The notes under the pieces: generated by a model
What the model saw: the letters and a program-made list of their open reading frames with translations, nothing else
What the model was told of the DNA's origin: nothing
Databases searched by the model: none
Program-made: the position numbers and the translations under genes
Assembly (NCBI GenBank): GCA_002309655.1
Contig: DBXM01000003.1
Coordinates: 21,078-85,077 of the forward strand
Length of the DNA stretch: 64,000 nucleotides
Origin: Mageeibacillus sp. UBA1212
Lineage (GTDB): Bacteria; Bacillota; Clostridia; UBA1212
Direction: 5' to 3'
Part shown: positions 3,663 through 52,689 of the stretch, in pieces
How positions within the stretch are numbered: the stretch's first letter is position 1
Layout: the number at the start of each line of letters is the position of its first letter

Positions 3663-5507
3663 TTATTTCCCGTTTTCCTCTTCCGCCAGCGCCCTGTAGT
3701 CGATCTTCCCCACCAGCGTTTTCGGGAGGCTGTCGCGGAACTCGATCTCCTTCGGCACCGCCAGCCGGAGCATGCGTTCCCTGCAGTACGCCCGCAGTTC
3801 CTCCGAGAGCGCCGCGCTGCCCGTGTAGCCCTCTTTCAGGACCACGAAGGCCTTCACGCGCTCCATTTTGTAGTCGTCCTTCACGCCGATAACGCAGCAC
3901 AAATGCACCGCCGGGTGGCCCGCGAGAACCGTCTCCACCTGCGTCGGGTAGACGTTGTAGCCCGAGGTCACGATGACCCTCTTAAGCCGCTGCCGGAAGT
4001 ACACAAAACCCTCCTCGTCCATCATCCCCAGGTCGCCGGTGTGCAGCCACACGAGGCCGTCTTCGTGAACGCGCAGCGCCGTGGCGGTCTCCTCCGGTTC
4101 GTTGATGTAACCCTTCATGACAGAGGGTCCGCGCAGGCAGATCTCGCCCTCCTCGCCCCTTGCCGCGGGAATGACCGTTCCCGGCTTCGTGACCGTGTAG
4201 TAGGTGTCCGGGTATGGAATGCCGATGCTGCCCCTGCGGCTGTAGCTCGGCGGCGTCAGGCAGGAAGCGGTAACGCACTCGGTGGTGCCGTAGCCTTCTC
4301 TTATCTGCACCTTCGCGCCGTGGGCCTTCAAAAACGCGTCCACCCGGTCCTTCAGCTCGGGAAGCAGCACGTCGCCGCCGGAGTAGACCCCCTTCAGGAA
4401 CGACAGGTCCGCCTTCTCGAGCTTCTCCGTCCTCAGGAGCGCCTCGAAAAGAGTGGGCACGCCGGGAATGAAATTCGGCTTCTTCTTTTTCAGGACCTTC
4501 GCGTAGCCCTCCACCGAAAACCGCGGCACAAGAACGCACTCAATGCCGAAAACCAGCGGCATGTGGACGCCGATTCCCAGACCGAAGCCGTGGAAGAGAG
4601 GCATCACCGACAGCATCCTGAGGCCGGGAACCCTTGTCTCGCCGCTTGCCGCCAGCGTCTGATAGGCCTCCGCGCAGAGGTTGAGGTCGGTGAGCATAAT
4701 GCCCTTCGGGGTGCCGGTGGTGCCGCCGCTGTAGAGAATGACGGCTGTCTCGTCTTCACGCTTGCCCTCCGCGAAACCGTAGCGGACCGCCTCCGAGCCG
4801 GCTTTTATTTCAGTTATTTTGGTTTTATTTCCCGTTTTTCCGCCGTTTTTCGCGCTTTTTCCGCCGGAAATGAACTTTTTCCACGTAATTGCGCCGTCGG
4901 GAACGCGTTTCAGCTCTTCAGGTTTCTTCACGGCAATCTTGACTGCCGCAGCTTTAATTAGTCCGAGGGCGTCGGCCGCGCTTGTTACGACCGTCGTTAT
5001 CTTCCTGCCGAGTATTTCGCCCGCCTTTTGGGCCGCCCTGTAGTTTTTCCCGAAAAACATGTCGAGGGTCACCAGCGCGACGCTCTTCGAGAGGGTCAGG
5101 TACTGGACGATCTCGTTCTCGGAGGACAGCGGGTGGATCATGCTCGGAACCGCACCGATCTTGCTGAGGCCGTAGAAGCAGAACAGCGCCTGGGGCACGT
5201 TGGGCAGCGAAATCGTGACCGCGTCGCCCTTCCCGATGCCCATGGCCGTGAACGCGTCCGCCGCCTCGCCGGTCTTCCTCAAAAACTCGTTGAACGAATA
5301 AATGCGCCCCTCGAAGTCGACTGCCGGCTCGTTCCCGAACTTCGCGGCGCTGTCCTCCACGGCCTCGTAAAGCGTTTTCCGCGGGTAGTCGAGAATGAAC
5401 GATTCGTTCCCGTAGTACTTTTTCCAGCATTCAAAAGCCGCGTCCGCCGCCTCCGCGGGAACCTTCTCAGGCTTCCGGAAATATTTATTGTCCGTTTGTT
5501 TTTCCAT
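3663..5507 (-). CDS. AMP-dependent synthetase/ligase (long-chain fatty acid-CoA ligase-like)
   Basis: AMP-binding motifs YSGGTTGTPKGIMLT, GYGTTE and TGDLG. I prefer the internal ATG at 5507 (MEKQTDNKYF...) because it is preceded by AGAGGAAAAT; the ORF track start is 5561. Confidence 0.9.
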   Translation of the reverse strand: MEKQTDNKYFRKPEKVPAEAADAAFECWKKYYGNESFILDYPRKTLYEAVEDSAAKFGNEPAVDFEGRIYSFNEFLRKTGEAADAFTAMGIGKGDAVTISLPNVPQALFCFYGLSKIGAVPSMIHPLSSENEIVQYLTLSKSVALVTLDMFFGKNYRAAQKAGEILGRKITTVVTSAADALGLIKAAAVKIAVKKPEELKRVPDGAITWKKFISGGKSAKNGGKTGNKTKITEIKAGSEAVRYGFAEGKREDETAVILYSGGTTGTPKGIMLTDLNLCAEAYQTLAASGETRVPGLRMLSVMPLFHGFGLGIGVHMPLVFGIECVLVPRFSVEGYAKVLKKKKPNFIPGVPTLFEALLRTEKLEKADLSFLKGVYSGGDVLLPELKDRVDAFLKAHGAKVQIREGYGTTECVTASCLTPPSYSRRGSIGIPYPDTYYTVTKPGTVIPAARGEEGEICLRGPSVMKGYINEPEETATALRVHEDGLVWLHTGDLGMMDEEGFVYFRQRLKRVIVTSGYNVYPTQVETVLAGHPAVHLCCVIGVKDDYKMERVKAFVVLKEGYTGSAALSEELRAYCRERMLRLAVPKEIEFRDSLPKTLVGKIDYRALAEEENGK

Positions 5508-5640: not shown

Positions 5641-5828
5641 CTGCATTAAAGGGAAAAGGGGTAATTAATGATCGCAGCTTATGAAAAAAGGAAAGGAGTT
5701 TGCAATTCGCCACATCATTTAGGAGGAGGTTACTGCGATCATTTTCCGTGCGCGGGATTCTGTCAGGTCCCGCCTACGGTTATAATTATACTCAGATTCA
5801 TTGAAAAAACCTTAAAGCGTTTTAAGCG

Positions 5829-5880
5829 GCCGGAAAATATCGGGAAATGCAGGGAAATGGCCGGAAAATGAAGGAAAAAC
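5829..5880. repeat. Degenerate CCGGAAAAT / GGGAAAT repeat patch
   Basis: CCGGAAAAT at 5830-5838 and 5861-5869, with GGGAAAT copies between them. It is related to the ATTTTCCG-type arrays seen elsewhere in the window. Confidence 0.5.
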
Positions 5881-10218: not shown

Positions 10219-10266
10219 TTTTCTGCCTCCGTTAAGTATATTTTCCGTCACGTCAATTCGTGAATT

Positions 10267-10326
10267 ATTTTCCGCGATTTTCCGCCGTTTCCCGCGTTTT
10301 TCCGCGATTTTCCGGCATTTCCCGCG
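10267..10326. repeat. 2 x 30-bp tandem repeat (ATTTTCCGCGATTTTCCGNC-NTTTCCCGCG)
   Basis: 10267-10296 and 10297-10326 are about 27/30 identical. They lie immediately upstream of the isomerase gene. Confidence 0.8.
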
Positions 10327-10405
10327 CTTTCTAACTTTTTCATTTTCCGCCATTTTTGCGACTCCTGCAGTCATTTAGTCTCAAAAATCCGCCGTCAGGA
10401 TTATA

Positions 10406-16684: not shown

Positions 16685-18217
16685 TTAAAATCTAAAATAT
16701 ATAAACGGGTTATAGGCTGAAGAAGCCAGCGTCAGCGCGCACGCCGCGAACAAAAGAAGCGCCAGCACGAACGAGACAACCGTCTGCCCTTTTCCAAACC
16801 CGTTTTTCGCTTTTTCCAGCGCCTTTCCGGCACCGTTCCCGCTCGCGATGAGCTTGCCCGCCCACTCGCGCCACGGCAGCGCCGCGACAACACCTATTAC
16901 CGCCGCAAAAACCGTGAACGGTGTGAGCGCGTTCAGAACGTCCGCCGTCAGTCCGCCCGTGAACGAGAACATCCTGCCCACGTACCTGATTCCGTACGAG
17001 ACCGTGTCGCTCCTGAACATGACAAAGCCCAATGTCACGACTGCGAGCGTGTAAACAAGCCTCAAAACCGTCGCCAAAACACTTAAAAGTGCTTTCGGTA
17101 CCTTCCCGAGCTCCTGTTTTTTCGCGGCCGCCCTGTCGCCCGCCGGCTTTAAGATTTCCTCTAAAAACAGGAAAAATCCGTGCCACAGCCCCCACAGAAT
17201 GAACGTGAAGTTCGCGCCGTGCCACAGCCCGGTCAGGAAGAACACGATGAACTTGTTGAGAACCGTTCTCGCCCTGCCCTTGCGGTTGCCGCCAAGCGGT
17301 ATGTAGAGGTAGTCGCGGAACCACGACGACAGCGAAATGTGCCATCTGCGCCAGAATTCCTTTATCGAAAGGCTCGCGTACGGGTGGTCGAAGTTCTCGT
17401 TAAATCTGAACCCGAACATCGCTCCGATTCCGATGGCCATATCCGAATACCCCGAAAAGTCGAAGTAGATCTGCAGCACATAGAAGACCGCCCCCAGGAA
17501 CGCCGCCTCGCCGCTGATCTTCGCGGTCTCAAGCCCGAAAACGCCGTCCGCCACCAGGGCCGCGGTGTTCGCGATGATGAGTTTTTTCGCCAGCCCCACC
17601 ACGAATCTTCTCGCGCCCTTCGCCGCATTTTCCGCGTCAATGCTCCTTTTCCCGAGCTGTTCCTCGATTTCCCGGTACTTCACGATCGGGCCCGCCACAA
17701 GCTGCGGGAAGAACGACACGTACAAAAGCATGCGGAAAAAGTTCGCGCAGTGCTGCGACGTGCCCCTGTAAACGTCGATAACGTAAGACAGAATCTGGAA
17801 GCTGAAGAATGAAATTCCCAGCGGCAGGGCAATCTGCTTCAGGTCGTACGCGGCGGCGAAAAGCTGCGTATTTCCGGGAAATATGGCGGAAATAATTCCC
17901 GCCGCAAACCCCGAATACTTGAAAAAGCACAGCGCCCCGAGCACCGCGACGCACGCCGCCGCCAGCCAGAGCTTCTTCAGTTTCGGCTTCTTTTCGATCA
18001 AAAGCGTCGCCAGCCAGCAAAAAAGAGCCTCGCCTATCAGCAGGAGCACCGTTACCGGTTCGCCCCACGCATAAAAGACAAGACTCGCTATCAGCAGCAG
18101 AACGTTCGAGGCGCGCACAAAGCCGGGCCGCCCCTTCGCGAAGACCATTATCGCCGTGTTCAGCAAAAAAACGGCCGGAAGGAATATGAAAACAAATACC
18201 TGACTGCTGAATACCAA
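16685..18217 (-). CDS. MBOAT-family O-acyltransferase (AlgI/DltB-like)
   Basis: 510 aa, polytopic. MVFSSQVFVFIFLP start; FWRRWHISLSSWFRDYLYIPLGGNR and LWHG motifs. Confidence 0.9.
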   Translation of the reverse strand: MVFSSQVFVFIFLPAVFLLNTAIMVFAKGRPGFVRASNVLLLIASLVFYAWGEPVTVLLLIGEALFCWLATLLIEKKPKLKKLWLAAACVAVLGALCFFKYSGFAAGIISAIFPGNTQLFAAAYDLKQIALPLGISFFSFQILSYVIDVYRGTSQHCANFFRMLLYVSFFPQLVAGPIVKYREIEEQLGKRSIDAENAAKGARRFVVGLAKKLIIANTAALVADGVFGLETAKISGEAAFLGAVFYVLQIYFDFSGYSDMAIGIGAMFGFRFNENFDHPYASLSIKEFWRRWHISLSSWFRDYLYIPLGGNRKGRARTVLNKFIVFFLTGLWHGANFTFILWGLWHGFFLFLEEILKPAGDRAAAKKQELGKVPKALLSVLATVLRLVYTLAVVTLGFVMFRSDTVSYGIRYVGRMFSFTGGLTADVLNALTPFTVFAAVIGVVAALPWREWAGKLIASGNGAGKALEKAKNGFGKGQTVVSFVLALLLFAACALTLASSAYNPFIYFRF

Positions 18218-20384: not shown

Positions 20385-21518
20385 TTAGTAGATTTTGTCG
20401 GTCTTCGTGACGATAATGCTCGTCGCGACGGTGCGCCGGCCGTTGAAGAAGAGCATGTAAGGCTGCGTGATGACTTCGCCTTTGTAGTACATGTAGGAGG
20501 ACATTCCGCCGTCCAGGTTGGCCGCGTTGACCGCGCCGTAGCGCATGAATATCTCGATGAGGTCCTCGTAGGAGGCGCCCATGCTGTGGGACTGGCGGCC
20601 GTCGATGATCAGAAGGAGGACTGAGCCGTCCGCGCGCTGGCCGATCGCCGTTCTCGGGTGGAAGCCGAGGTTGGTGCTCTTTGAGGGCACTATGCAGGGT
20701 TCGTTGTTCTTGACGAGAACCGGCCCGAAGTTGACGGCGTCGCGCATTCCGAGCTCGAGCGCCTTGCGCGCTGTCATCGTGTCGACGCGCAGAATGTTCG
20801 AGTTGTCGAACCCGATAAAATCGTAGGTGTAGTCAAGGTTGCCCCAGCGCATCTCCCCGTCGATAATGACGACTCCCGGGCCGTCGATTCCCTGCGGAAT
20901 TCCGCCCGTTCTGTAGTCGGACATCTCCTGGTAGCCGCCCGCGTTGATCGCCGCAAGCGCGTCCGTTTCGCGCGCCATCTGTTCGGTGGATTTTCCGACG
21001 ATTCCGTCGCCGTACTTGGGAAGTCCCGTCACCTTCACGCGCGAAGGATCCTTCACGACCAGCATCTTGCCGACAAACGTCTTGCCTTTGATGTCGATGA
21101 GGCAGATTCCGTCTTCGTCGTAAACGATTCCCTGCTCGCGGTCCTTTTTGTCGTTTTCGTCCTGCTTCCCCGGATCCTCGTCGCCGCCGCCGATCACGAC
21201 AAGCGTCTCGTCCGTCGTCCCCTCGGGAACGATTATCCGGTTTTTCTCAATAATCTCGTTCACTTCGTCGTCGCTCAGGAACATGTGCGCGCAAAAATCC
21301 AGCGCCCCGGTCTCGACCATCGCCGTCACGAACATCTCGCGAACGACCTCGGACTTGCCTTTCGAAATCTTGTAGATCGCCGCGACAAGCGTCACCGCGA
21401 GTATCAGCACCACCGCAATCACGCACGCAAGAACCCTCCCGAGAATGCTGAACACCTTCTTGAGGATCTCCTTCGTGTTTTTGCTGTTCTGTTCCTTTTT
21501 GCGGGTTGAAAAGTTCAT
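20385..21518 (-). CDS. Phosphodiester glycosidase family protein (NAGPA-like)
   Basis: 377 aa with an N-terminal anchor. Motifs NAGGY, RTAIGQRADGSVLLLIIDGRQ and NLDGGMSS. Confidence 0.75.
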   Translation of the reverse strand: MNFSTRKKEQNSKNTKEILKKVFSILGRVLACVIAVVLILAVTLVAAIYKISKGKSEVVREMFVTAMVETGALDFCAHMFLSDDEVNEIIEKNRIIVPEGTTDETLVVIGGGDEDPGKQDENDKKDREQGIVYDEDGICLIDIKGKTFVGKMLVVKDPSRVKVTGLPKYGDGIVGKSTEQMARETDALAAINAGGYQEMSDYRTGGIPQGIDGPGVVIIDGEMRWGNLDYTYDFIGFDNSNILRVDTMTARKALELGMRDAVNFGPVLVKNNEPCIVPSKSTNLGFHPRTAIGQRADGSVLLLIIDGRQSHSMGASYEDLIEIFMRYGAVNAANLDGGMSSYMYYKGEVITQPYMLFFNGRRTVATSIIVTKTDKIY

Positions 21519-22591: not shown

Positions 22592-23359
22592 TCAGTTTCC
22601 GCCGTTGCCCGAGAATCTCTTCACGAAGGTCTCATGCTCCTTCGCAATGTCGGCATGAACGTCGCTGACCTTCTTCTCGATCTCCTTGTACGCCGCGTCG
22701 ATCCTCTGGAGGTTCTCGATGATGATTCCGTTGAGCCTCTCCTGAACGCCGAGCTTCGCAGCGTCAGCCTCTTCGCGGGTCCTCTTGGAGTAGTCGTCCG
22801 CGTCAGCGTGAACCGTCGCGGAATAGTTGTCCGCCTCGTTCCTTGCGGTCTGCTTGATGTCCTCCGCCTGGGCTCTGGCCTGAATGGTGATCTGGTGCGC
22901 GTCAACTAGCGCCGCCGCCTGAGTTCTGCCGGCTTCGATAATTCTCTCCGCCTCGGCCTCGGCCTCCGCGATGATTCTTCTCTTCTCCTGCTCGCCATCG
23001 TTCTTTGCGGACCTCAAAGCCTCTTCGCAGCTTCTCTCGACCGCTTTCTGCTGTTCCTCGGCGTCCTTGACCATCTTGTCAACGCGGGCGTCGCTCTCCT
23101 GCTTGTGGCTTTTCGCCGCCGCGAGCAGGTTATCGGCCTGATCGACCAGCTGCTTCGCACGTTCCATAACAAGAGGCCTGTCCTCAACAAGCGACTTCAC
23201 GATTTCTTTGAACGTTCCAAAGTCTTCGATCGTACCCTTGTCTTTGTTGAGAAGTCCGCCGACCTTGGCGTTTTCAACGTATTGAAGGAGTTTTCCAAGA
23301 TTCTCGATGTAGGTGTTAAGTCTCTCTTTTTCCTCTCCGTAACGCATCGTCTCTGCCAT
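22592..23359 (-). CDS. Coiled-coil protein of unknown function (ATPase-b/DivIVA-like low complexity)
   Basis: 255 aa. Charged heptad-like sequence including IIAEAEAEAERIIEAG. No enzymatic motif was found. Confidence 0.4.
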   Translation of the reverse strand: MAETMRYGEEKERLNTYIENLGKLLQYVENAKVGGLLNKDKGTIEDFGTFKEIVKSLVEDRPLVMERAKQLVDQADNLLAAAKSHKQESDARVDKMVKDAEEQQKAVERSCEEALRSAKNDGEQEKRRIIAEAEAEAERIIEAGRTQAAALVDAHQITIQARAQAEDIKQTARNEADNYSATVHADADDYSKRTREEADAAKLGVQERLNGIIIENLQRIDAAYKEIEKKVSDVHADIAKEHETFVKRFSGNGGN

Positions 23360-23448
23360 AATTTCTTTCCCTCCGATTTTAATCTGTTAGCGGCACCTTT
23401 CCTGCCGTTCAAATACTGTTTGGTTGTATTGCATTTCCCGGTTTCCCG

Positions 23449-23517
23449 GTGGATTTTCCGGCGTTGTTTGCGGTATTTCCCGCATTTCCGGTGGATTTTC
23501 CAACTTGTGGATTTTCC
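23449..23517 (+). repeat. Cluster of three exact GTGGATTTTCC copies (dispersed repeat family)
   Basis: Exact 11-mers at 23449, 23491 and 23507. The cluster lies in the spacer between the coaD stop and the next gene's start. Confidence 0.9.
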
Positions 23518-23522
23518 GGCCG

Positions 23523-24035
23523 TCAATTCTTCGCGGCTTTGATTTCCTTCATTTTCGCGTAGATGTCGTCAACAATCTCTTCGGGAACGAGCCCGTGAAT
23601 GTTGCCGCCGTGCTGCGCGATGTCTTTAATGACGCTCGAACTCAGGAACGAGTTGTGAATGTCCGTCATGAAGAATATCGTGTCGGTTTCCTGGCTCATG
23701 TGCTTGTTGAGCATCGCCATCTGGAGCTCATACTCGTAGTCCGAAACCGCCCGCAAGCCTCTCACTATCGTGTCGGCGCCTTTTTCCTTCACGAAGTCGA
23801 CCAGCAGCCCTTCAAACATCTCCACCTTGACATTTTGCATGCCCTTGGTGCATTTCCGAATGTGCTCCACCCGTTCGTCCATCGAGAACAGGGCTTTTTT
23901 GCTGTCATTTTTCAAAACGCCGACGATCAGCAAGTCGAAAAGCTTAGACGCCCTTATTATAATATCCAAGTGCCCGTTAGTCAACGGGTCAAAACTTCCG
24001 GGATACACCCCTATCCGTTTTTTCTGCGATTTCAT
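23523..24035 (-). CDS. coaD: Pantetheine-phosphate adenylyltransferase
   Basis: 170 aa with a [14 protein letters not shown] motif. Confidence 0.95.
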
Positions 24036-24628
24036 AAGCTTTCACTCCCGTAAAATTGGTAAACCGACACGCAAACCGTTCCGTAGCGCCTTGTTTTTGT
24101 CCTGACGAACTTTCCGTATGCGTCCTCAAGAACGTCATCCGCCGAGTGTTCGCAAACGACCGTCGCCGGTTTCGGCGGGAATTCCGCCCCCGGGTCTCTC
24201 CGGCAGATTTTTTCCAGCGAAGGCGCCGTGAGCATCTTTTCAATCAGCCCCTGCCTGTACGGCGGGTCCAGCAGCACCAGTCCGACCGTCTCGCCCCGGT
24301 TCGCGAGCGTGTTTGCCGCAGCGGTAAAATCGTTGCAGAACACCTCCGCTTTTTTCGAGAACCCGACGGTGTCAAGGTTCTCCTGAACGATTTTGCAGCA
24401 CGCCGGCGACTTGTCGTTGAAGTAGCAGAAATCCGCCCCGCGGCTCAGCGCCTCAATCCCGAGGCTCCCGTTCCCGGCAAACGCGTCGAACACTTTTTCG
24501 CCCTGAATATAGGGCATAATCATGCTGAACATCGCCTCTTTGACGCGGTCAAGAGTCGGCTTCGTGTTCTCGCTGTCGAGCGTTTTCAGTTTGCGGCCGC
24601 GGGCGGTTCCCGCGATGACTCTGACCAT
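24032..24628 (-). CDS. rsmD: 16S rRNA (guanine966-N2)-methyltransferase
   Basis: [16 protein letters not shown] start; [15 protein letters not shown] and LLDPPY motifs. I chose the ATG at 24628 with GGAG upstream. The track ORF extends into a repeat array. Confidence 0.9.
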
Positions 24629-24651
24629 AGATGATGCTCCGTTATTGTTGT

Positions 24652-24796
24652 AAATATTTTCCGGTCGTGCGGTGGATTTTCCGGAAATATTTTCCATCCA
24701 TGCGGTGGTTTCTCCGGAAATATTTTCCAATCATGCGGTGGTTTCTCCGGAAATATTTCCAACCGTGCGGTGGATTTCCCGGAAATATTTCCCGCC
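24652..24796 (+). repeat. 4.4 x 33-bp tandem array (AAATATTTTCC-N6-TGCGGTGGWTTYTCCGG)
   Basis: Units at 24652-24684, 24685-24717, 24718-24750 and 24751-24782, with a partial unit at 24783-24796. The array fills almost the whole spacer between the peptidase stop (24800) and the rsmD start (24628). Confidence 0.9.
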
Positions 24797-24799
24797 TCT

Positions 24800-25879
24800 T
24801 TAAAGAATCGTAAGTTCCTTCGACGGCGACTTCGTTACCATGTCGAGCTTGCCCTTCCTGATCGTGACAAGGTCCTCGATCCTGACGCCGCCGAGTCCCG
24901 GAATGTAGATGCCCGGTTCGACGCTGAAAATCATTCCCGGCTTGAGCACAAGCTTGCTGCTCGGCGACACCGAAACGCCTTCGTGAACGTCGATGCCGAC
25001 GCCGTGGCCGAGACTGTGACCGAAATACTCGCCGTATCCGTGTTCTTGAATGACCCTTCTGGCCAGCGCGTCAAGATCGCCGCCGGTCATTCCAGACTTG
25101 TAGCCGTCGATCGCCGTCTGCTGGGCCTCTTTGACGACCTCGTAGATCTCGCGCATTTTCGCCGAAGGCTCGCCGACGAAAACGGTTCTTGTCATATCCG
25201 AGCACATTCCGCCGCCGAACGCACCGAAATCGATCGTGACGCCGTCGCCTTTTTCAATAATTTTCGACGAAGCCGTGCCGTGCGGCATGCTGCCCCTGAC
25301 GCCCGAAGCCACAATCGTGTCGAACGACGGTTTGTCCGCACCCGCCGCCCGCATCTCGTATTCAAGCTTCGCCGCGACCTCGATTTCCGTCATTCCCGCC
25401 TTTATAAAAGGAAGAGTCCTCTCGAGCGCCGCCGACGCGAGCGCGCAAATGCTGACGACGTCCGCAATCTCCTCCTCGGTCTTGATCGTCCTCATCCCAA
25501 GGAAGAATTGGCCGAGCCCCTCGAGCTTCACGCGAAGCTTTTTGTAGTAGTTCACGTACTGCGCGTAGCCGACCGCCGCGTCCTCGAAGCCGATTTTCTC
25601 AACATTTTCCGACTTGAGAACCTTTTTCATCTCCTCAAGCGACCTCGAGTAGCACTTCACGAGCGTGAAGTCGCCGGACTGCTGCTCCGCCTGAACGTAG
25701 TAGCGCGAGTCGGTGAAAATGTACTTCGCCTTCGCGGTAATGAGCAGCACCGCATCGCCGTAGCCCGTGAACCCGCTCAGGTAGTAGACGTTCTGCCACG
25801 ATTCGACGATAATTCCGTCAAGTTCGTGCTCTCTCATGTATTTTCTGACTTTCGCCAGCTTTTTCGTGTTGTTTTTCAT
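24800..25879 (-). CDS. M24-family Xaa-Pro aminopeptidase/dipeptidase
   Basis: 359 aa with metal-ligand motifs HSLGHGVGIDVHE and EPGIYIPGLGGVRIED. Confidence 0.9.
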   Translation of the reverse strand: MKNNTKKLAKVRKYMREHELDGIIVESWQNVYYLSGFTGYGDAVLLITAKAKYIFTDSRYYVQAEQQSGDFTLVKCYSRSLEEMKKVLKSENVEKIGFEDAAVGYAQYVNYYKKLRVKLEGLGQFFLGMRTIKTEEEIADVVSICALASAALERTLPFIKAGMTEIEVAAKLEYEMRAAGADKPSFDTIVASGVRGSMPHGTASSKIIEKGDGVTIDFGAFGGGMCSDMTRTVFVGEPSAKMREIYEVVKEAQQTAIDGYKSGMTGGDLDALARRVIQEHGYGEYFGHSLGHGVGIDVHEGVSVSPSSKLVLKPGMIFSVEPGIYIPGLGGVRIEDLVTIRKGKLDMVTKSPSKELTIL

Positions 25880-26010
25880 CGTTTTTACACTTTCCGCCGT
25901 AGCGTATCTTTTCCGTGAACGCTCCGCCCCCGGTTTGCCGCGGCTGATTTTTTATTTTACAAAAATCCCTTTATTTAGTCAAGAAAAACGCCCCGCGGCA
26001 CGGCCGGGAA

Positions 26011-28488
26011 TCACTTTATTTCCTGACGTTTTCCGCTGTTTTCCTTTATTTTCCGCGATTTCCCGCGCACGGCAAAAACGATCATCTCAGCGGCAACCGC
26101 GAGCATTCCGGTCGAAAATAAAACAAGCCCCGCCGTGAACCCGGGCGTTTTGTACGTAAACACGACCGTGTTCGTCCCTTTTTCCAGCGCCACCGCCATC
26201 ATCCCGCCGGCGTCGAAAATCTCCGTTTTTTTGCCGTTGACAGACGCCGACCAGCCTTTGGAGTAAGGCACACTGAAGAACGCGACCGTTTTTTCTCCAG
26301 TCTCGATCTCCGAAACGAAGCCCTTTTCGTTCCTCGCGAACCGCTTGGAAGACTCCGCCTTCCTCGCCTCGAATGCTTCGTAAAGCGGTTTTGTTTCCGC
26401 CTTAACGTCGCCGTGCGCGAGAATGACGCCACTTTCCGCGAGTTTTTCCGCGTCTTTTTGCGCGATAACGATATTTTCCAGCATTATCGCGGGTCTTGCG
26501 GCATCGTCAGCCTCTTTTAGTTCTTCAGGCGTCACGTAGCTCCCGTACGTAAACCCGAGCGGCAGGAAGTTCTCATACTCGTAAATGTAAATTATCGTCC
26601 CGTCCGAATACTCATATTTTCCAACCGGTTCGCTTCCGTCAACGGTTGACTCGGAAAGATAATAGCGGCACGACAGCAGCGCCATCAGTTCTTTCTGAAA
26701 GCTTCCGACCGTCCTGACAAGTCTTTCCGTTCCCAGATTTTCATAGAACTCGAAAAGGCCGCCCTCCGCGGTGCTTATGAACGAATTTACCGACGGAATT
26801 CCCGTCAGCATGGAGATGTTGTCGAACGAATTCGCGAAGTACGACTCGCCCGCTTCATGCCAGTCGGTCCTGACTCTGAAATTTCCGTCCTCCGGAAAAT
26901 ACCGGGAAATATTTCCCGACTCCGTGAGAACCGCCTTCGTTTTTTCCGCGCCGATATTTCCCTCGCCGTTCACAATGCCCGGTTCGTAGAACTCGCCCTT
27001 TCCCTGCACGAAGGTGTACCTCACCGCCGCTGCCGCCGTCGACAGAACGCCAACCGCAACCGCGCCCGCAGTGAGCAGCGCAACCGCCTTCTTCGAGTTC
27101 GCTTTTTTCGCTATAATTAGGACGAAAACAGCCGCCGCAATTCCCGCTCCGCCGTAAAACGCCCAGAGAACCGGGTTCGTTTTTCCGGCGATATTATCAA
27201 TGCCTCTGATTTTGTAGTAGGCAATCGCAGCGCCCGATACCGCCACCGTGAACACGACAAACGCAAGGTTGACCTTTGCGCCGAAAATGAGGTTTTTCCG
27301 TTTTTCCGGTGGATTTTCCAATTGTGGATTTTCCGCCGGCGTTTCTTTCTCGACACGTTGTGGATTTTCCGGCAGTCCGTCAATCGCAACGCACGTCAGC
27401 ATCGCAAAAACAAGCGCCGGCATGTAAAACCACCTGGCGTAATATCTGGCATTAAACATCGAAAATGCGGCGTTCAGCACCGGCACCAGCGAGAACCCTG
27501 TCAGCACCACCGGCAGCCACGCCTTTGACTTTCTGAAATTCCCCTTGAAATAGGCAAAAACTCCAGTCATCGCTACAAGTGGCAGATACAGTGCGCACGA
27601 ATCGCACGCCTGCTGGAACAGATAATTTCCGGTTCCCATTATGTCAGCCGGCAGGAAATACGCCTGAAGCAACGTCACATACTGCTGCCACCCGAACAAA
27701 ACGTCTGTGCTGAGCGACGAGACGCGCGGGTTGTTCATGACCGACAGGAACGCCGGCAGCAACACGATTGCCGAGATCAGTATCCCGACGGTTCCTTCGC
27801 CGAGCATGACCAGAAAATGTCTGATTTTGTCTTTTTTCACAATGTTTTCCGACAGCGCAACGCGGAAAATAAACCAAATCACCAGAAAAACTACCTCTCC
27901 GAAAAACAGGTAGTAGTTCGTGATCGCGCAGAGCGCCGCCGTCAGCGCGAAGACAGCCGGTTTCTTCTCCAGCAGGAACTCGACCGCGAGCATAAGCACC
28001 GGGAACAGGCACATCGCGTCGTGGAATGGGAACAGCAGACTGACCGTCTGAATTCCCGAAAACGCGTACAAAACGCCTCCCAGAACCGCCGTTTTCCCGT
28101 CTCTCACGAACCGTTTCACAAACGCTGCCGCCGCAACCGCCGCCACAACATACTTTAAAACAAGCATCGGCGCCGCCAGGTACGGGGTCACCGCAGCCGG
28201 GAACAGCGCCAGAATCAGCGTGAACGGACTGTAAAGATTGTAAAATGCGAGCGCGTTCGACACATCAGCGCCGAGATCTACGACCCAGCTCCACCCGAAA
28301 TCCGCTGGACTCCTATAAAGTGAGACCGCATATGTGTTGAAAATCTGCTGCTGCCACGAAAAATCGTCCGCCAGCGCCAGAATCCCCCTGCCCGCAATCA
28401 CCGCCGGAAGAAGCGAAAGAATGCACGCCGCAGCCGCGATCAACGCGGTTTCAAGCAGATATTTGTTTGAAGTGTGTTTTTTAAGCAT
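26011..28488 (-). CDS. YfhO-family polytopic membrane protein (putative glycosyltransferase)
   Basis: 825 aa, with many transmembrane spans and a large C-terminal extracytoplasmic domain. The N-terminal ADDFSWQQ region resembles YfhO. Confidence 0.7.
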   Translation of the reverse strand: MLKKHTSNKYLLETALIAAAACILSLLPAVIAGRGILALADDFSWQQQIFNTYAVSLYRSPADFGWSWVVDLGADVSNALAFYNLYSPFTLILALFPAAVTPYLAAPMLVLKYVVAAVAAAAFVKRFVRDGKTAVLGGVLYAFSGIQTVSLLFPFHDAMCLFPVLMLAVEFLLEKKPAVFALTAALCAITNYYLFFGEVVFLVIWFIFRVALSENIVKKDKIRHFLVMLGEGTVGILISAIVLLPAFLSVMNNPRVSSLSTDVLFGWQQYVTLLQAYFLPADIMGTGNYLFQQACDSCALYLPLVAMTGVFAYFKGNFRKSKAWLPVVLTGFSLVPVLNAAFSMFNARYYARWFYMPALVFAMLTCVAIDGLPENPQRVEKETPAENPQLENPPEKRKNLIFGAKVNLAFVVFTVAVSGAAIAYYKIRGIDNIAGKTNPVLWAFYGGAGIAAAVFVLIIAKKANSKKAVALLTAGAVAVGVLSTAAAAVRYTFVQGKGEFYEPGIVNGEGNIGAEKTKAVLTESGNISRYFPEDGNFRVRTDWHEAGESYFANSFDNISMLTGIPSVNSFISTAEGGLFEFYENLGTERLVRTVGSFQKELMALLSCRYYLSESTVDGSEPVGKYEYSDGTIIYIYEYENFLPLGFTYGSYVTPEELKEADDAARPAIMLENIVIAQKDAEKLAESGVILAHGDVKAETKPLYEAFEARKAESSKRFARNEKGFVSEIETGEKTVAFFSVPYSKGWSASVNGKKTEIFDAGGMMAVALEKGTNTVVFTYKTPGFTAGLVLFSTGMLAVAAEMIVFAVRGKSRKIKENSGKRQEIK
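27309..27370 (+). repeat. Three exact GTGGATTTTCC copies inside the YfhO-like CDS
   Basis: Exact 11-mers at 27309, 27324 and 27360. Read on the coding strand they encode PENPQRVEKETPAENPQLENPPEK. Confidence 0.9.
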
Positions 28489-28573
28489 ACTTTTCTCCGG
28501 CCTTGCGGGGTAGTTATGAGTTTAATCGGGTAAGTTGCAAGCTGAAGTTTTGATGTGGAACCGCCACGTTCGC

Positions 28574-28692
28574 GGAAAATCCACAACTTGGAAAATCCAC
28601 CGTTTCCCGGAAAATAGTCGTTTCTCCGCGGGAAATCCACAGTCCGGAAAATCCACCGTTTCCCGGAAAATAGTCGTTTCTCCGCGGGAAAT
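28574..28692 (-). repeat. Repeat cluster in reverse orientation, including two identical 47-mers with a 56-bp period
   Basis: GGAAAATCCAC at 28574, 28590 and 28646. Identical 47-mers occupy 28590-28636 and 28646-28692. Confidence 0.9.
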
Positions 28693-28704
28693 ATCCGCGA
28701 AAAG

Positions 28705-29739
28705 TTACATAAACTCCTTGTGCACGCAGTCGGCCTCGAGCGACTCAAGCACCGAGTTGAAGCTGTCGTTCCTGCAGTAAGGCGGGCACTTCGTCACGTC
28801 GATATTCTCGTAAACCATCCATTTTCTGTAAGAGTTCCAGACCTCTTCCAGCGTCTTTCCCTCCCCGCGCATGTCGCCGATCAGGAAATCCGGTTCCTGC
28901 CGGTGGTGGAGGCACGCGAAAACCTTCGCGTCGGCGGTGATGACCGTCGAGAAGAACATACCCCTGCACTTTGAGTAGTTTCTGCAATTCCCGTCACAGA
29001 ATTTGGTGTATTTCTGAAGCGAGGCCTTCACCAGGAAATTCTCGTCCTCGTATTCGTCCTTCAGCCGTTCGTATTCGTCCGAAATGTCCGTTCTGTCGCC
29101 GGTGAACGGTCGGAACTGGGCCGCGCCGACGCCGCACTTCTTGCAGAGCGCCACGAACGCCTCCATATCTTTTACCGTTCCCGCCCCTGTCAGGAACCCC
29201 GCCGTGAACGAAACCGGAGAGCCGGTCTCGCGTTTGACATCCGCCATCATTTTCATGTTTTCGCACACTTTTTCGAAGGCTTTTGCGGGCATTCCGTGCG
29301 TTTTCATGTACATTTCCGGCGTGCCGGCATCTAGACTGATGCGGAAATAGGTGCAGTATTTGGCAATCGCCTCGCATTTTTCACGCGTGAGAGCAAGGCC
29401 GTTGCTGTTGAGGCCGATCTCCATGCCGGCGTTTTTGATGAGTTCAAGCGTCCGGATAAAGTCCGGGTGGAGGAGCGGTTCGCCGCCGCCGCTAACGATA
29501 ACGCCTCTGTTGCCGAGGTTTTTAAGACCGTTCACAATCATGACGATCTCGTCCCAGGTGAGCTGGCTGCCGTTCTCCTTGACGCCGACGCAAAGCGGGC
29601 AGTTGTTGTTGCACTTGTTGGTCAGGTCAAACTCGGTGACGATGAGCGTCTTGCCGCCGTTGAAAAAGTGGTCGAGCTTGTCGATATGGTGAAGAATCTT
29701 CTCGCTTGAATTGAAAGAATTGAATACGGTTTTGTTCAT
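28705..29739 (-). CDS. Radical SAM protein with a Cys-rich C-terminal (auxiliary cluster-like) region
   Basis: 344 aa. CNNNCPLCVG (CxxxCxxC) and GGGEPLL. The C-terminal region contains CDGNCRNYSKC, ACL and CPPYC. Confidence 0.8.
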   Translation of the reverse strand: MNKTVFNSFNSSEKILHHIDKLDHFFNGGKTLIVTEFDLTNKCNNNCPLCVGVKENGSQLTWDEIVMIVNGLKNLGNRGVIVSGGGEPLLHPDFIRTLELIKNAGMEIGLNSNGLALTREKCEAIAKYCTYFRISLDAGTPEMYMKTHGMPAKAFEKVCENMKMMADVKRETGSPVSFTAGFLTGAGTVKDMEAFVALCKKCGVGAAQFRPFTGDRTDISDEYERLKDEYEDENFLVKASLQKYTKFCDGNCRNYSKCRGMFFSTVITADAKVFACLHHRQEPDFLIGDMRGEGKTLEEVWNSYRKWMVYENIDVTKCPPYCRNDSFNSVLESLEADCVHKEFM

Positions 29740-30681: not shown

Positions 30682-30721
30682 CCTTCCCGCAGCCTTCCCA
30701 AAGCCTTCCCAAAGCCTTCCC
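30682..30721. repeat. Four CCTTCCC boxes with an exact 11-bp period
   Basis: CCTTCCC at 30682, 30693, 30704 and 30715, followed by looser TCTTCC/TCCTTCC copies up to about 30768. The boxes lie in a divergent promoter region. Confidence 0.85.
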
Positions 30722-30772
30722 GCTGTCTTCCTGAAATCTTCCTTAAATCGTCCGGAATCCTTCCGATTTTAC

Positions 30773-43106: not shown

Positions 43107-45122
43107 TCAATTCCCGACCGCATCCGGAGCTTTGCCGCCCAAAGCATCGGCAGTCACCCACATCGCCGGACGCACCCCCACATACCAGTCGGCGCAGCCT
43201 GCGTAGTCATATTTCGAAAACCGGAATAACGCGTTGCCGGCGCCGTTGTTTCCGGCCATCCACCAGGCGCAGACCGGCTCGCCTTTTACCTTGTAACACT
43301 TCCACGGACCCGCGCCCTCTTTTTTTGCGTACCCGGTCGGGATACACGCCATGTCATAACGCGATCCGAAATACTTTTCCGCGTCTTTTTTGCTGAGCAG
43401 AAACACACTGTCCAAGGCTTCGCAATTCACTCCGCCGCCGGCATCGGAGCTTGCGGCAAAAGGCACCTGTACGATCCGTTTCCGCTCCTCATCGGAAAAG
43501 GCATGCTCCAGGAACGCGCCGTGCAGCCACGCCCTTAAGGCACTTTTCTCCCACCATCGCCTTTCGTTTGGGCACCCCTTAAAGAGGGTGTGATATGCCG
43601 GATCAAAGTCGAATTCCATCGCGTCAATGGCAAATCTCGTGACCAGCAATGCCTTTTCGCCGTCATTTTCCAGAATTATCCACTCTATCGGAGCAAGCCC
43701 CCCTTTCTCGTCTTGCGGGTATGTTCCGAAAAACGTCGTATCACGAGATTTCCCGGAAATAACTTCTTTTTCAGGAGTTAAGCAGTCGCTGTCTGTGCGA
43801 GTTTCTTCGCCGGAATCGTTTTCATCTTTTCTAAGCGAGATCCTCATGACAGGCCGCACCGCAACGTCCAAAACCCTGACGGCAGTTCCGGCCTCGTCAA
43901 CGGAGCCGTCTTCTTCGACAATCGCGGCTGCGTTCTTTTCGCCTTTGTTTCTCAGCCACCAGCAACCATCGTTTCTCCCGTGCCGGTGGTAGCCGCCGCA
44001 GGCAATCGCGTAGTCCGTGAGCTCACACATGCGGTCCGCGTCCGAAGAAAAGTACTTTCCGGCCTCATCCGCGTCTAAAAAGAACACCTTGTCCGCCGTC
44101 TCGACGCCGTCCGTTTTGACACGGCTCTCCAGTATCTTCCCGCGCTCCTCAGGCGTGAACGCGTCCATAATAAACCAGTTGTTAAGCCAGTCCCGCATGT
44201 CGCTGTCCTTCCACTCGCAGCCCTCCTGATTGTAGAGCCTGGCGTCGAGTCCGTGCTTGCTGATAACCAGAGCCGTGTCGCCTTCCCGCTCCAGGATCTC
44301 CCACTCGATCGGCGCCTGTTCGCAATCCTTCCCGAACGGATAGGAGCCGAAAATCACGGACTCGCGCGCGGTTTTTGAGACATCAGTCTCGAAACCCGGA
44401 GAATCGGGAAATGCCGGCGGATTGAACTTTTCGAAATTCACAACGATTGCCGGCCGGACCGCAAGCTCAACAGACCCAATGTCCGCGCCGGAGTACTCGA
44501 TCTTGCCGTCGTGATTCACGGTAACCGCCGTGTACGGATCAGCGTGTTTGGAATGTGACCTGAGCCACCACCTGCACGATTTGTCTTCGGCAACGCAATC
44601 CTTCCCCATGGCGGCAACATAGTCGGTCGCCATACACTTTCCCAGGGAATACTCTTCAGCCTCGCTTAGGGACGGAACGAACGCCTCATCCTCGATTTCG
44701 ATATCGTACGGATTCTCGGTCGAGTAGAAACTAATGACGCGCCGCTCCTCCTCCGTAAAAGCAATTTTCAAAAACTCCCGGTTGAGCCAGCGCCTCATAT
44801 CGCTAAACCCCCACATCAGATTCCCGTCAAACGGAACCTCTTCAACCGTTTTATTTCCGGAACTCTTCCTGCCTCGGCGCTTGCCTCCGGACTGTTTATC
44901 GCCTTTCTGCTCACCGTCCCCCGGAATGTCGAACCGCCGTACATCAAGGGCGTACTTGCTTACAAGCAATGCCGAATTCAGGCAGCTGTCAATCACGCGC
45001 CACTCGATCGGCGCCAATTCCCCGTTCGGCCCCTGGGGGTAGGAGCCGAAAAGGATGGTGTTTCTTTTTACGGAAATTACTCTACTACTGTTATTCGGGA
45101 TATTTTCGGGAATTTTGTTCAT
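43107..45122 (-). CDS. Protein with three tandem DUF6273-like domains
   Basis: The FGSYPQ...PIEW...ALL.SK...WLN..F...AF...E...VF.L...E...WWLR...VRPA pattern occurs three times. No signal peptide was found. The ATG at 45122 lies 1 nt after the upstream stop; an alternative ATG is at 45143. Confidence 0.7.
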   Translation of the reverse strand: MNKIPENIPNNSSRVISVKRNTILFGSYPQGPNGELAPIEWRVIDSCLNSALLVSKYALDVRRFDIPGDGEQKGDKQSGGKRRGRKSSGNKTVEEVPFDGNLMWGFSDMRRWLNREFLKIAFTEEERRVISFYSTENPYDIEIEDEAFVPSLSEAEEYSLGKCMATDYVAAMGKDCVAEDKSCRWWLRSHSKHADPYTAVTVNHDGKIEYSGADIGSVELAVRPAIVVNFEKFNPPAFPDSPGFETDVSKTARESVIFGSYPFGKDCEQAPIEWEILEREGDTALVISKHGLDARLYNQEGCEWKDSDMRDWLNNWFIMDAFTPEERGKILESRVKTDGVETADKVFFLDADEAGKYFSSDADRMCELTDYAIACGGYHRHGRNDGCWWLRNKGEKNAAAIVEEDGSVDEAGTAVRVLDVAVRPVMRISLRKDENDSGEETRTDSDCLTPEKEVISGKSRDTTFFGTYPQDEKGGLAPIEWIILENDGEKALLVTRFAIDAMEFDFDPAYHTLFKGCPNERRWWEKSALRAWLHGAFLEHAFSDEERKRIVQVPFAASSDAGGGVNCEALDSVFLLSKKDAEKYFGSRYDMACIPTGYAKKEGAGPWKCYKVKGEPVCAWWMAGNNGAGNALFRFSKYDYAGCADWYVGVRPAMWVTADALGGKAPDAVGN

Positions 45123-45698: not shown

Positions 45699-46715
45699 CT
45701 ACTCGTTGATTGGATCAACCCCTTCGGCACGGAGTCTGTTGTTGATCTCATAAAAGGGGACGCGCTGTGCTAAAAGTCCCCTTATCGCTCTGAAACGTTT
45801 GTCCGTCTGCCTCTTCCACGCCCTCTTTTCATCGCCGGTTGCCGCAGCGTACTCGTCAAAAAGCCAGTCAAGCTCCGCGGGGCTCATCCCAAGATAGAAA
45901 GCCAGCGCAAACAGTTTTTCGACCTTGATCCGCCTTTTTTCGTACATATAGTCTGAGAGCGTGTTCCGGCTCATATTGCACGCATTGGCGCACTTTTCAA
46001 TCGTCGTATCCTTCTTATCGATTTTGTTTTTTAAGAACCAGTACAGACTGCCCGTGTCCGCCTCCGCACACTTTTTCGCAAACCCGTTATTTCCGGACCT
46101 CCTGTTCGCATTGCAGACTTTACAAACCGCCTCAAAATTGTTCGGATTCGCCTCAATCGCGTCGAGAACCTCGCACACCCTGCCAAAAACCGCCTCCGGC
46201 TTATTACAAGACCGAAAACTGACGTACGCGAACTCCTCCTTCGCGCCGGCGCCTCCCGACTTTCCGTCAATAACGACCAGCGCGGGCAGTGCGTTCCTTA
46301 CACCGTACAAATCGGCCAGCCGCGTCATCAGCTCATATCTCGGCCTTGGATTCCAGGCCTTTTTGAACTCCCCCTCCAATGCGCACTGCACCGACCCGGC
46401 AAGGCTTCCGTCGTTTTTCCATTTGTCGAAAACCGCCTCCGGGTAGACGGTGAACAGCGGCATGTCCGCCTTCAGCCTGTTGTTCAGCCTCGCGCCGTAT
46501 TCAGTAAGGAACGGCGCGGAAATAACGTCCCCCGATGCGTATAGATAGAGCAAAACGTACCGGTCAGTCGTAACGGATCTCTCTCCGACAGCCTTCCAAA
46601 CGTTCTTCGGCGTGAGGTTGTCGTAAACGCCTCCAAGCGTGCTGTCGTCGCGAATGTTCGCAACAAGGCCCAAAGTGGAGGTCGCTTTCCCGAATGGATC
46701 GAAATAAATAGGCAT
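45699..46715 (-). CDS. Protein of unknown function with a C-terminal XRE-type helix-turn-helix
   Basis: 338 aa. TIEKCANACNMSRNTLSDYMYEKRRIKVEKLFALAFYLGMSPAELDWLF resembles an XRE HTH. Confidence 0.55.
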   Translation of the reverse strand: MPIYFDPFGKATSTLGLVANIRDDSTLGGVYDNLTPKNVWKAVGERSVTTDRYVLLYLYASGDVISAPFLTEYGARLNNRLKADMPLFTVYPEAVFDKWKNDGSLAGSVQCALEGEFKKAWNPRPRYELMTRLADLYGVRNALPALVVIDGKSGGAGAKEEFAYVSFRSCNKPEAVFGRVCEVLDAIEANPNNFEAVCKVCNANRRSGNNGFAKKCAEADTGSLYWFLKNKIDKKDTTIEKCANACNMSRNTLSDYMYEKRRIKVEKLFALAFYLGMSPAELDWLFDEYAAATGDEKRAWKRQTDKRFRAIRGLLAQRVPFYEINNRLRAEGVDPINE

Positions 46716-46762
46716 GGTTTTCTCCTTTTGGTGAAAATAGGTTGTTAGTACAGGGCACGCTC

Positions 46763-47785
46763 TTATCTATGGGGCCAATAAAGCTCCCGTATGTGCTTCA
46801 AGAGTCTGGGATCATGATACTTTGGCGGCTGCCTCCAGCAAATATCCTCAATTAAATCGTCTATCTCGCCGTCGTGTGATATCGATGAAATCCAGTTTGC
46901 CTGTTTTTCCGCAAGAGACCACACCCAATCAGAATGAAAGAAATCATGTAAGTAAAATGCAAATGCCAAATGCCCAACCTCATGACTAAATACCTTATCC
47001 AGCATTTCCATTAGCGTCGGCGGATATAACGTCATGGATTTAATCATTCCAGACATATTCTCAGGCGCCAACAAAATAATAGTCTCCCCAGCATTCACAT
47101 TACCCGACCCCAGCATAAGATTATTGAGCCCACGAGCTAATGATGCATCAACAAACTGAACATAACAACCCATGAAATCCTGGATTGAAATCAATTTTTT
47201 ATTAATGTCGACATTGTCCTTGATTGCGAGCAAACCATCATCAGCATTAGCAACAAGAATAATCTTGTCTAGGCAACCTATTGCATTTGAATGTTCGACA
47301 TAGTGCTGAGGCGATGTGTGTTTGAATATGTTGTCCAGATACGAATCTATCTTTTCCAAATACCAGTTGATTTTCAAAGGAATCTCTGCAGCCAAACGGG
47401 ATTTTCGGAAATTATCTGAACACAGTAACTCAATGTTATGGGGATTAAATAGTCTTGGAGCAGACTTTACCTTGTCCGACCATGAATTATTGTATATATC
47501 ACAATACAAATCATTGAATGCGGGTAAATTGTTGAATACTTCTATAGCCAATTTGCTATTGTTGTTAAACCCGGTACCACTCGCAAGGAAATGGTAGTTG
47601 GCTAACTTTTTCCTTATGCTTGCTTCGCTTATTCTAATGTTAGCTTTTTCCAGATCCAGACACAAGTCCTTTGGCTTAATCTGAGGGCTAATAAGCGCTG
47701 CTCTGGCACACATTATTTCTTCTAAAGCATGCCAAGTGTGTTTCTTTTCATAGTATTTCAAATCTTCGTGGTTCAAATCAATCAT
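46763..47785 (-). CDS. HEXXH-motif protein (putative zinc metallopeptidase)
   Basis: 340 aa with a single HEVGH motif (VFSHEVGHLAFAF). It lies in an AT-rich region. Confidence 0.5.
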   Translation of the reverse strand: MIDLNHEDLKYYEKKHTWHALEEIMCARAALISPQIKPKDLCLDLEKANIRISEASIRKKLANYHFLASGTGFNNNSKLAIEVFNNLPAFNDLYCDIYNNSWSDKVKSAPRLFNPHNIELLCSDNFRKSRLAAEIPLKINWYLEKIDSYLDNIFKHTSPQHYVEHSNAIGCLDKIILVANADDGLLAIKDNVDINKKLISIQDFMGCYVQFVDASLARGLNNLMLGSGNVNAGETIILLAPENMSGMIKSMTLYPPTLMEMLDKVFSHEVGHLAFAFYLHDFFHSDWVWSLAEKQANWISSISHDGEIDDLIEDICWRQPPKYHDPRLLKHIRELYWPHR

Positions 47786-48002
47786 AAATCCTCTTCCTTT
47801 CCTTTTGGCAATTGATTATGTAAGTCTAATTTGTTTTAAATCTAAATGATTTCCACACTCGTCTCCTGCGAATCAAAGATGTACTTAACGGCTTGTTTTT
47901 CCCAAAATCAAGAGGCAATACCCAGTTTTACCAAATCTTGAGTTTTCGAAAAAGAACATCATCACATCATTTCATCGTTCTTCACATCCAAGCGAATGGA
48001 TC

Positions 48003-49940: not shown

Positions 49941-50006
49941 ACTGTATTCCTCCTAAATTTACAATTATTCTGCTATACATAAACACTTTTCAAATATCTT
50001 CTATCG

Positions 50007-50549: not shown

Positions 50550-50576
50550 GGTTTTTCCTTTCCAAAACAATTCGCA

Positions 50577-52626: not shown

Positions 52627-52689
52627 TGTCGCGGCCTCCTTTAAGCCGGTTCGCTGCTGAAATAGTTTCGCGCGCAGGCGTGCGGGATC

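Follow-up and report, generated by a model that had tools for sequence, protein, structure and literature searches.

The stretch of DNA analysed here, 64 kb of contig DBXM01000003.1 from Mageeibacillus sp. UBA1212 (hereafter the window), carries a family of tandem repeats built around an 11-bp box, GTGGATTTTCC. Genes of the window lie almost all on the minus strand, and GC skew is negative and uniform throughout. Pfam hits on identical strain loci identified the genes of the repeat-bearing block as radical SAM, YfhO, M24 aminopeptidase, RsmD (Cons_hypoth95), CoaD (CTP_transf_like), a hypothetical protein and RsmE. The box is present in 11 exact copies against a shuffle expectation of 0.07, and none of 100 shuffles reached 11, bearing out the statement in an earlier note on this DNA that such an 11-mer is expected far less than once per window. 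Ten of the copies form four clusters spanning 23449-28656, whose sub-units recur at periods of 15/16, 33, 42 and 56 bp (Table 1). Clusters 1, 2 and 4 are intergenic and cluster 3 is inside yfhO, at about amino acids 371-400. The earlier note had likewise placed the clusters at gene boundaries around coaD, rsmD and yfhO with one inside a coding sequence (CDS), and the Pfam assignments agree with this setting. The eleventh copy, which that note overlooked, stands alone inside a NAGPA-domain gene, where it reads GGA AAA TCC ACC (G-K-S-T) within the peptide GIVGKSTEQMA. This peptide was invariant across strains and in syntenic relatives whose YfhO is ~50 % identical, and at the corresponding position two of these relatives carried the 11-mer either exactly (L063) or with one base different (L062). 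This copy is therefore a coding coincidence, which leaves the ten copies listed earlier, all of which were present, as the true members of the family.

The boxes are components of larger, modular units. Alignment of 16 units from six arrays gave a 57-bp consensus (GCGGAGAAACGACAATTTTCCGGAAAAACGGTGGATTTTCCAAGTTGTGGATTTTCC) comprising three sub-modules of 21, 20 and 16 bp, all with a TTTTCC end. The general architecture was the box combined with GGA(G/A)AAAC and (A)TTTTCC modules to form 16-, 33-, 42- and 56-58-bp units, and units were more alike within arrays than between them (identity 0.889 versus 0.795). In cluster 2, the unit is GCGGTGG(A/T)TT(T/C)(T/C)CC followed by GGAAATATTTTCC and a further 8 nt, with GTGGTTTCTCC variants between an exact and a one-mismatch box; in cluster 4 it is GCGGAGAAACGACTATTTTCCGGGAAACGGTGGATTTTCCGGACTGTGGATTTCCC, oriented opposite to clusters 1-3. 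Boxes are 16 bp apart in spacers and 15 bp (five codons) apart inside the yfhO CDS. The two-box composites of clusters 1 and 4 (23489-23518 and 28573-28602) were 97 % complementary, upholding the 30-nt composite that had been described from the sequence, and 27314-27336 in cluster 3 matched 28572-28594 in cluster 4. Periods of 15-16, 33 and 56 bp, also reported earlier, were recovered by box spacing (15/16 bp) and by Tandem Repeats Finder (TRF; 33 bp x4.2 and 56 bp x2.2). Several arrays begin with a 15-bp near-palindrome, TATTTCCGGGAAATA, followed by CGGTGGATT(T/C)TCC, a head common to five independent arrays. TATTTCCGGGAAATA is also found as a solitary element, for example at 17869 within the coordinates of an MBOAT gene. 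In the window's spacers, CGGAAAA, CCGGAAA and ATTTTCC were the top heptamers, 5-7 times commoner there than in coding sequence, with CGGAAAAT the commonest heptamer. No promoter- or terminator-like site was found within the arrays. Most frames of the units are free of stop codons, which led gene callers to place spurious open reading frames (ORFs) in the arrays, such as a 54-amino-acid ORF in the array downstream of coaD (L010 10533-10697, L013 3606-3770) and ORFs called in five frames of the array at L002 (1603-2302).

Variation among strains was examined in a set of independent assemblies that supplied eleven loci with 94-100 % identity to the window. Array length differences between strains (94-97 % identical) amounted to whole units. 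The spacer downstream of coaD changed in steps of 16 and 42 bp, and the longest spacer upstream of yfhO contained one extra unit. Upstream of rsmD, the longer, box-bearing allele was confined to the window and L012, and the nine other strain loci had the shorter allele with GGAAAATATTTCC modules and no box. The earlier note had taken the periods to fit arrays of sites for a DNA-binding protein. They are not helical-phase spacings; they are minisatellite sub-unit lengths that shift between strains in whole-unit steps.

The 51-bp insertion inside yfhO, absent in L010/L011, lies in a loop that is hypervariable in length among YfhO homologues, and its boxes are in frame and read as PENPQRVEKETPAENPQLENPPEKRKN. 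The filled allele matched the cluster 1 composite over ~35 nt, less one base: GGCGGAAAATCCACAA-TTGGAAAATCCACCGGAAA in yfhO corresponds to GGCCGGAAAATCCACAAGTTGGAAAATCCACCGGAAA 3.8 kb away, minus one base, and this 1-nt deletion converts the 16-bp box spacing to an in-frame 15 bp. The empty allele carried a proto-site, GCGGAAAATGCGCAG. At the 3' end of the same gene (26011-26068), the last ~14 codons (RKIKENSGKRQEIK) cross a 10-bp GGAAA-type repeat, and the C-terminal tail of YfhO may have been shaped by the same repeat-prone sequence.

Comparison with relatives revealed orthologous sites that are empty. In a sister lineage (L078/L079; 83-89 % identical), the radical-SAM-to-yfhO spacer was 55 bp and held no array, and the 11-mer was absent from 4.7 kb. 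Relatives with ~50 % identical YfhO (L062-L064) kept the gene order wholly or partly and had no tandem arrays; the spacers of L062 and L063 were 10-86 bp. The absence of arrays from these short orthologous spacers, both in the sister lineage and in other genera, indicates that they are recent gains and argues against a conserved regulatory array. The empty site of L078 and the filled site of the window differed across the entire spacer, without a clean junction at which tetranucleotide direct repeats could be read. Gene order and orientation were identical in all strains and other genera, which ruled out that the inverted composites at 23.5 and 28.6 kb enclose an invertible segment of 5 kb.

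Dispersal beyond the window was explored with the composite as query in one scan of species-representative genomes and one of metagenomes, which returned two classes of match. Class A has 16-bp spacing and 56-58-bp compound units and lies on contigs of 0.53-0.60 GC. It was found at at least seven unrelated loci: L026 (where consecutive spacers hold three arrays), L028, L030, L040, L045, L048 and the rumen metagenome-assembled genome (MAG) locus L002. The recurrence of the same compound units on related metagenome contigs and in one rumen MAG supports the earlier description of a dispersed repeat family. On inspection of their sequences, the neighbouring genes looked like rhamnosidase-like, transporter, aminopeptidase, ClpB, CotH-like, phosphodiesterase (GDPD) and ABC permease genes. 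The spacers concerned were co-directional, convergent or divergent, and arrays were found in both orientations. A regulon of cell-envelope genes was rejected since arrays elsewhere flank unrelated genes, and a DNA-uptake sequence was rejected since copies are in tandem clusters and not evenly spread. In L002 and L048, phosphodiesterase-like (GDPD) orthologues 85 % identical to one another have an array downstream at the same position; the units had diverged between the two arrays and were homogeneous within each, with the terminal TTGTGGATTTTCC identical. Sample names suggest a ruminant or herbivore gut habitat. A literature search for the 11-mer returned unrelated primers only. Extension of the window via its edge proteins added ~2.7 kb only.

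Class B has 15-bp spacing, is present in many phyla and viral contigs, and is coding. It encodes (V/A)ENPQ or ENPH/ENPR pentapeptide linker repeats, or other peptide repeats, and the N-terminal domain of the proteins resembles, by eye, a winged-helix replication-type domain. Repeat number differs between relatives. Class B is unrelated to class A; the two overlap only because GAA-AAT-CCA encodes E-N-P. Matches in many phyla were therefore rejected as a sign of a widespread element, being 15-bp-spaced coding repeats.

Occupation of many unrelated loci, with empty and filled orthologous sites, could also be the signature of a non-autonomous mobile element similar to MITEs (miniature inverted-repeat transposable elements), repetitive extragenic palindromic (REP)/REPIN sequences or small dispersed repeats, moved by a transposase or Y1 nuclease encoded elsewhere. 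In-frame insertion into a gene is known for RPE, BOX and other repeats (PMC3184786), and the conserved head at several arrays would also fit an element of this sort. We consider such an element improbable. No terminal inverted repeats bound an array and no target-site duplications were evident; array ends are ragged partial units, array length is variable, and the only long inverted pair consists of two arrays 5 kb apart. The arrays have little potential to form palindromes: the arms are AT-rich and only 6-8 bp long (GGAAAA/TTTTCC), unlike those of REPs. A Pfam scan covering almost the whole window (all but two genes at its end) identified no transposase, Rep, REP-associated tyrosine transposase (RAYT), integrase or cas domain. 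By blastn there was no similarity to plasmid or phage records, and a plasmid or phage origin was rejected on this basis. The head motif had no viral match, viral contigs carrying only the 15-bp-spaced coding class. The absence of a transposase among the Pfam-annotated genes accords with the earlier view that the clusters are not an obvious insertion sequence or MITE. CRISPR had also been discounted correctly, as the apparent spacers recur as units of one array (89 % identity) and no cas domain was among the Pfam hits listed. The suggestion of a REP-like element stands only if the term is taken broadly, for any interspersed repeat of intergenic regions, there being no GC-rich palindrome or stable hairpin and no RAYT in the window.

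We lean, with modest confidence, towards the view that the clusters belong to a lineage-specific minisatellite family of the STAR, MIRU and BOX kind, in which the tandem repeats are interspersed, modular and non-coding. The family is previously undescribed, and its resemblance to STAR and MIRU is one of analogy and not of membership. REPs are GC-rich imperfect palindromes associated with RAYTs. The present arrays resemble REP, BIME and REPIN sequences as abundant short intergenic repeats that are sometimes tandem, but the box is palindromic only as GGA-N3-TCC and no RAYT was found in the window. BOX elements end in defined A and C modules and are predicted to form stable hairpins. As in pneumococcal BOX, the arrays here are built of modules, with an internal one that is repeated a variable number of times, but the array ends are ragged and the hairpins weak. 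Occasional in-frame fusion into protein genes is shared with both BOX and Rickettsia RPE (PMC3184786), although at 51 bp the coding insertion here is shorter than the 100-150 bp of RPE.

STAR elements consist of a short conserved direct repeat (14 bp) with recurring intervening sequence, are intergenic, and expand and contract between strains (PMC3532100). Their locations differ between related species, and their function and propagation mechanism are unknown (PMC3532100). The arrays are similarly an 11-bp box split by recurring 5-46-bp segments, with units of one array 89 % identical. In contrast to the GC-rich STAR consensus, T(G/A/T)TGTTG(G/T)GGCCC(C/A) (PMC3532100), the consensus here is unrelated, the boxes are often doublets 16 bp apart, the intervening segments are built of GGAAA/TTTCC modules, and the host is not a staphylococcus but belongs to an uncultured Clostridia lineage. 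STAR is thus the closest analogue in architecture and behaviour, with membership excluded by sequence. MIRUs are 40-100-bp units arranged in tandem in operon spacers at tens of loci, variable in number and absent from homologous regions of related species; they are GC-rich, contain short ORFs overlapping the flanking stop and start codons, and have 4-nt direct repeats at filled sites (PMC3184786). The 33-, 42- and 56-58-bp units described here are likewise in operon spacers and show whole-unit length polymorphism. Unlike in MIRUs, however, the 16-, 56- and 58-bp unit lengths are not divisible by 3, coupled ORFs were not seen, and arrays take either orientation to transcription and are also found between convergent genes. 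MIRU is the closest system in operon-spacer location and variable-number behaviour, with membership excluded by sequence and by the lack of coupled ORFs.

Under the minisatellite interpretation, arrays would grow and shrink by slipped-strand mispairing or unequal recombination, as the polymorphism seen between strains suggests, and would be homogenized locally, consistent with the pattern of unit identity. Existing arrays may serve as templates from which new ones are seeded (by ectopic gene conversion or template switching), a step that the yfhO case points to, with microhomology sites such as CGGAAAAT or the GGAGAAA of ribosome-binding regions as candidate targets. An element-encoded enzyme would not be needed. 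The arrays are likely to be passengers, neutral or mildly selfish, and their main effect is probably to lengthen spacers inside operons that are tight in relatives. The family could not be linked to a replication origin, a gene of a mobile element or a role in regulation.

Several observations weigh against this interpretation. The box and a second internal box, not imposed by the extraction of units, are nearly invariant, whereas the 5-nt spacers and linkers vary. The orthologous array of L002 and L048 has been kept across 15 % protein divergence. All ten family copies in the window fall within 5.2 kb, unlike a uniformly dispersed element; local conversion explains such clustering, but local function would too. 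The exactness of the box across diverged arrays points to frequent conversion or else to a host factor that recognizes it, and the near-invariant box and the persistent orthologous array hint at a constraint on the sequence itself, which would not be predicted by a purely neutral model.

Alternatively, the arrays could serve as iteron-like platforms for a DNA-binding protein with sequence specificity (such as a regulator, nucleoid-associated protein or protein of ParB/Noc type) that would recognize the box and/or TATTTCCGGGAAATA. The greater conservation of the box relative to spacers and linkers holds across loci and species, and the same heads are present at five independent arrays. TTTCCSGGAAA was enriched (6 present versus 0.12 expected), and the 20-bp module GGAAAAACGGTGGATTTTCC has dyad symmetry that can be read directly from the sequence. 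The array that persists between species beside the 85 % identical protein fits here as well. Against these points, arrays are missing from orthologous spacers in close and distant relatives, copy number and even allele type differ between strains, and the flanking genes are functionally unrelated, in all spacer configurations and both orientations. Sites 16, 20 and 21 bp apart within the 57-bp unit are also unphased (index 0.03-0.27 at 10.5 bp). We consider a binding platform unlikely, albeit deserving of attention, and more doubtful still is its specific form in which box arrays and palindromic heads would be loading platforms and a lineage-specific protein would maintain the box against drift. 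If the platform reading were true, the arrays would be a chromosomal 'iteron' system shaping operon insulation or nucleoid structure and not a passive minisatellite; a long-standing question would be opened only if a specific binding protein were found.

Searches for known binding sites bear on the same alternative. For the Noc site (ATTTCCCGGGAAAT, a 14-bp palindrome), the best matches were two 12/14 hits with 2 mismatches (GTTTCCCGGAAAAT), and a Noc/ParB site was rejected, there being no 14-mer Noc binding site and the head palindrome being 15 bp with an odd centre. TATTTCCGGGAAATA does resemble the Noc site minus one central base. No DnaA box (TTATCCACA, up to 1 mismatch) lies within 19.7-37.4 kb, a range that includes the clusters, and no rep or dnaA gene was found among the genes scanned. 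A replication origin or DnaA-box cluster was rejected given the uniform GC skew, the location of nearly all genes on one strand and the lack of a DnaA box in the clusters; the window contains neither origin nor terminus. The iteron reading of the earlier note was therefore not supported, with no rep gene, no DnaA box (up to 1 mismatch) in the clusters and a uniform GC skew. Plasmid and phage iterons (11-22 bp) are similarly direct repeats in arrays, but here a rep gene, an AT-rich unwinding region and DnaA boxes are lacking nearby, the neighbours are chromosomal housekeeping genes and copy number varies freely between strains.

We also considered whether the arrays act as RNA, either as structured elements or as protein sponges (for example, multi-GGA sites of CsrA type) in operon transcripts or 5' leaders. 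Folding of the arrays was stronger than that of shuffled sequences, with z-scores of -3.1 to -4.2 for the GTGG strand, which G-U pairing favours, and -2.9 for the opposite strand, and several GGA triplets per unit are present on either strand. Good folding is to be expected, however, because any tandem unit with both GGAAAA and TTTTCC would fold in this way. Rfam gave no match at the gathering threshold across the whole window and none even at E<=1 across 23300-28800; the Alifold covariation term was only -0.7 kcal/mol, with a compensatory change in 2 of 14 pairs. The sense strand was the worse-folding strand in three of the four window clusters, and arrays are also located between convergent genes and in both orientations. 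A function as RNA thus seems very improbable.

Intrinsic curvature would be a further option, in which phased A/T tracts act as upstream promoter elements. Genuine A-tract arrays phased at 10 bp do exist in the window beside promoter-like hexamers, and these share CGGAAAAT with the box family. The A/T-tract phasing index at 10.5 bp (tracts >=3) was 0.06-0.27 for the 56-58-bp arrays and 0.21-0.56 for short ones, and box arrays are also found between convergent genes and inside a CDS. Curved DNA was rejected as the identity of the arrays since the box arrays themselves are unphased, and we regard it as scarcely credible.

The family comes from an uncultured herbivore-gut Clostridia lineage, where such families have hardly been catalogued, and its empty and filled sites can be compared cleanly, among them the one at which an in-frame repeat insertion was born in a loop of a membrane glycosyltransferase. 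Such comparisons help in understanding how minisatellites seed and spread without an obvious enzyme. In practical terms, the arrays are ready-made variable-number markers for strain typing, and they are likely to cause contig breaks, false CRISPR calls and spurious ORFs.

Table 1. Positions of boxes, clusters, alleles and related features (window coordinates unless a locus number is given)
Feature	Position	Strand	Details
Cluster 1	23429..23518	+	In 163-bp spacer from coaD stop (23523) to start of next gene (23359); boxes 23449, 23491, 23507; two-box composite 23489-23518; sub-units 16 + 42 bp
Cluster 2	24652..24790	+	In spacer from M24 aminopeptidase stop (24800) to rsmD start (about 24628); 33 bp x4.2 (TRF); exact box 24672, one-mismatch box 24770
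Cluster 3	27289..27375	+	Inside yfhO (26011-28488, minus strand); boxes 27309, 27324, 27360
Cluster 4	28571..28692	-	In 216-bp spacer from radical-SAM stop (28705) to yfhO start (28488); 56 bp x2.2 (TRF, score 209); boxes 28574, 28590, 28646 and one-mismatch 28630
Exact GTGGATTTTCC	20986, 23449, 23491, 23507, 24672, 27309, 27324, 27360	+	
Exact GTGGATTTTCC, reverse complement	28574, 28590, 28646	-	
One-mismatch GTGGATTTTCC	24770, 28630		
Isolated exact 11-mer, outside the family	20986..20996	+	Inside NAGPA-domain gene (20385-21518, minus strand)
coaD-downstream spacer alleles			163, 179, 195, 237 bp; steps of 16 and 42 bp
yfhO-upstream spacer alleles			216, 217, 273 bp; longest has one extra unit
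rsmD-upstream spacer alleles			170 bp with boxes, or 144 bp without
yfhO internal allele			51-bp in-frame insertion, present, or absent in L010/L011
15-bp near-palindrome TATTTCCGGGAAATA	17869-17883, 43747-43761, 24773-24787		
TATTTCCGGGAAATA in related loci	L026 3086 and 4494, L028 2083, L030 4200, L045 4261		
Class B loci	L067 8954-9039, L073, L054, L071, L024, L035, others		
Short tandem arrays, 10-11-bp periods, on CGGAAAAT/ATTTTCCG	10257-10337, 4828-4866, ~5810-5880, 26019-26068, 30682-30757		e.g. ATTTTCCGCG x6.4

Among the short tandem arrays of 10-11-bp period, that at 10257-10337 was in phase with the helix (index 0.99 at 10.0 bp, 0.78 at 10.5 bp), and that at 5810-5880 had an index of 0.79 at 10.5 bp. 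Both are positioned just upstream of promoter-like hexamers and were identical or nearly so in two other strains. These arrays look like classic phased A-tract (curved DNA) upstream elements, and the 10-bp arrays may represent the motif pool from which the box family arose.

Elsewhere in the window, an AbiEii-domain gene is present at about 13.7-14.5 kb. A low-GC island (46000-62000; 0.36-0.47) contains GmrSD-type restriction endonuclease domains (48003-49940) together with N6 DNA-methylase, DUF2779, WG-repeat and DUF6273 genes, and it looks like an acquired defence or accessory region. Eight DnaA-box-like 9-mers were found in a low-GC stretch of 3.3 kb (55448-58709). Two perfect copies of TTATCCACA are each in a 35-bp repeat (56482-56516 and 58684-58718; 94 % identical), and these repeats are each just downstream of a large gene, namely a DUF6273/LRR_5 gene (56485-58674) and an N6-methylase-domain gene (58743-60635). 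Within the coordinates of the latter, a 42-bp x3.2 tandem repeat (59083-59215) was identified; as the period is divisible by 3, this sequence probably specifies a 14-amino-acid repeat.

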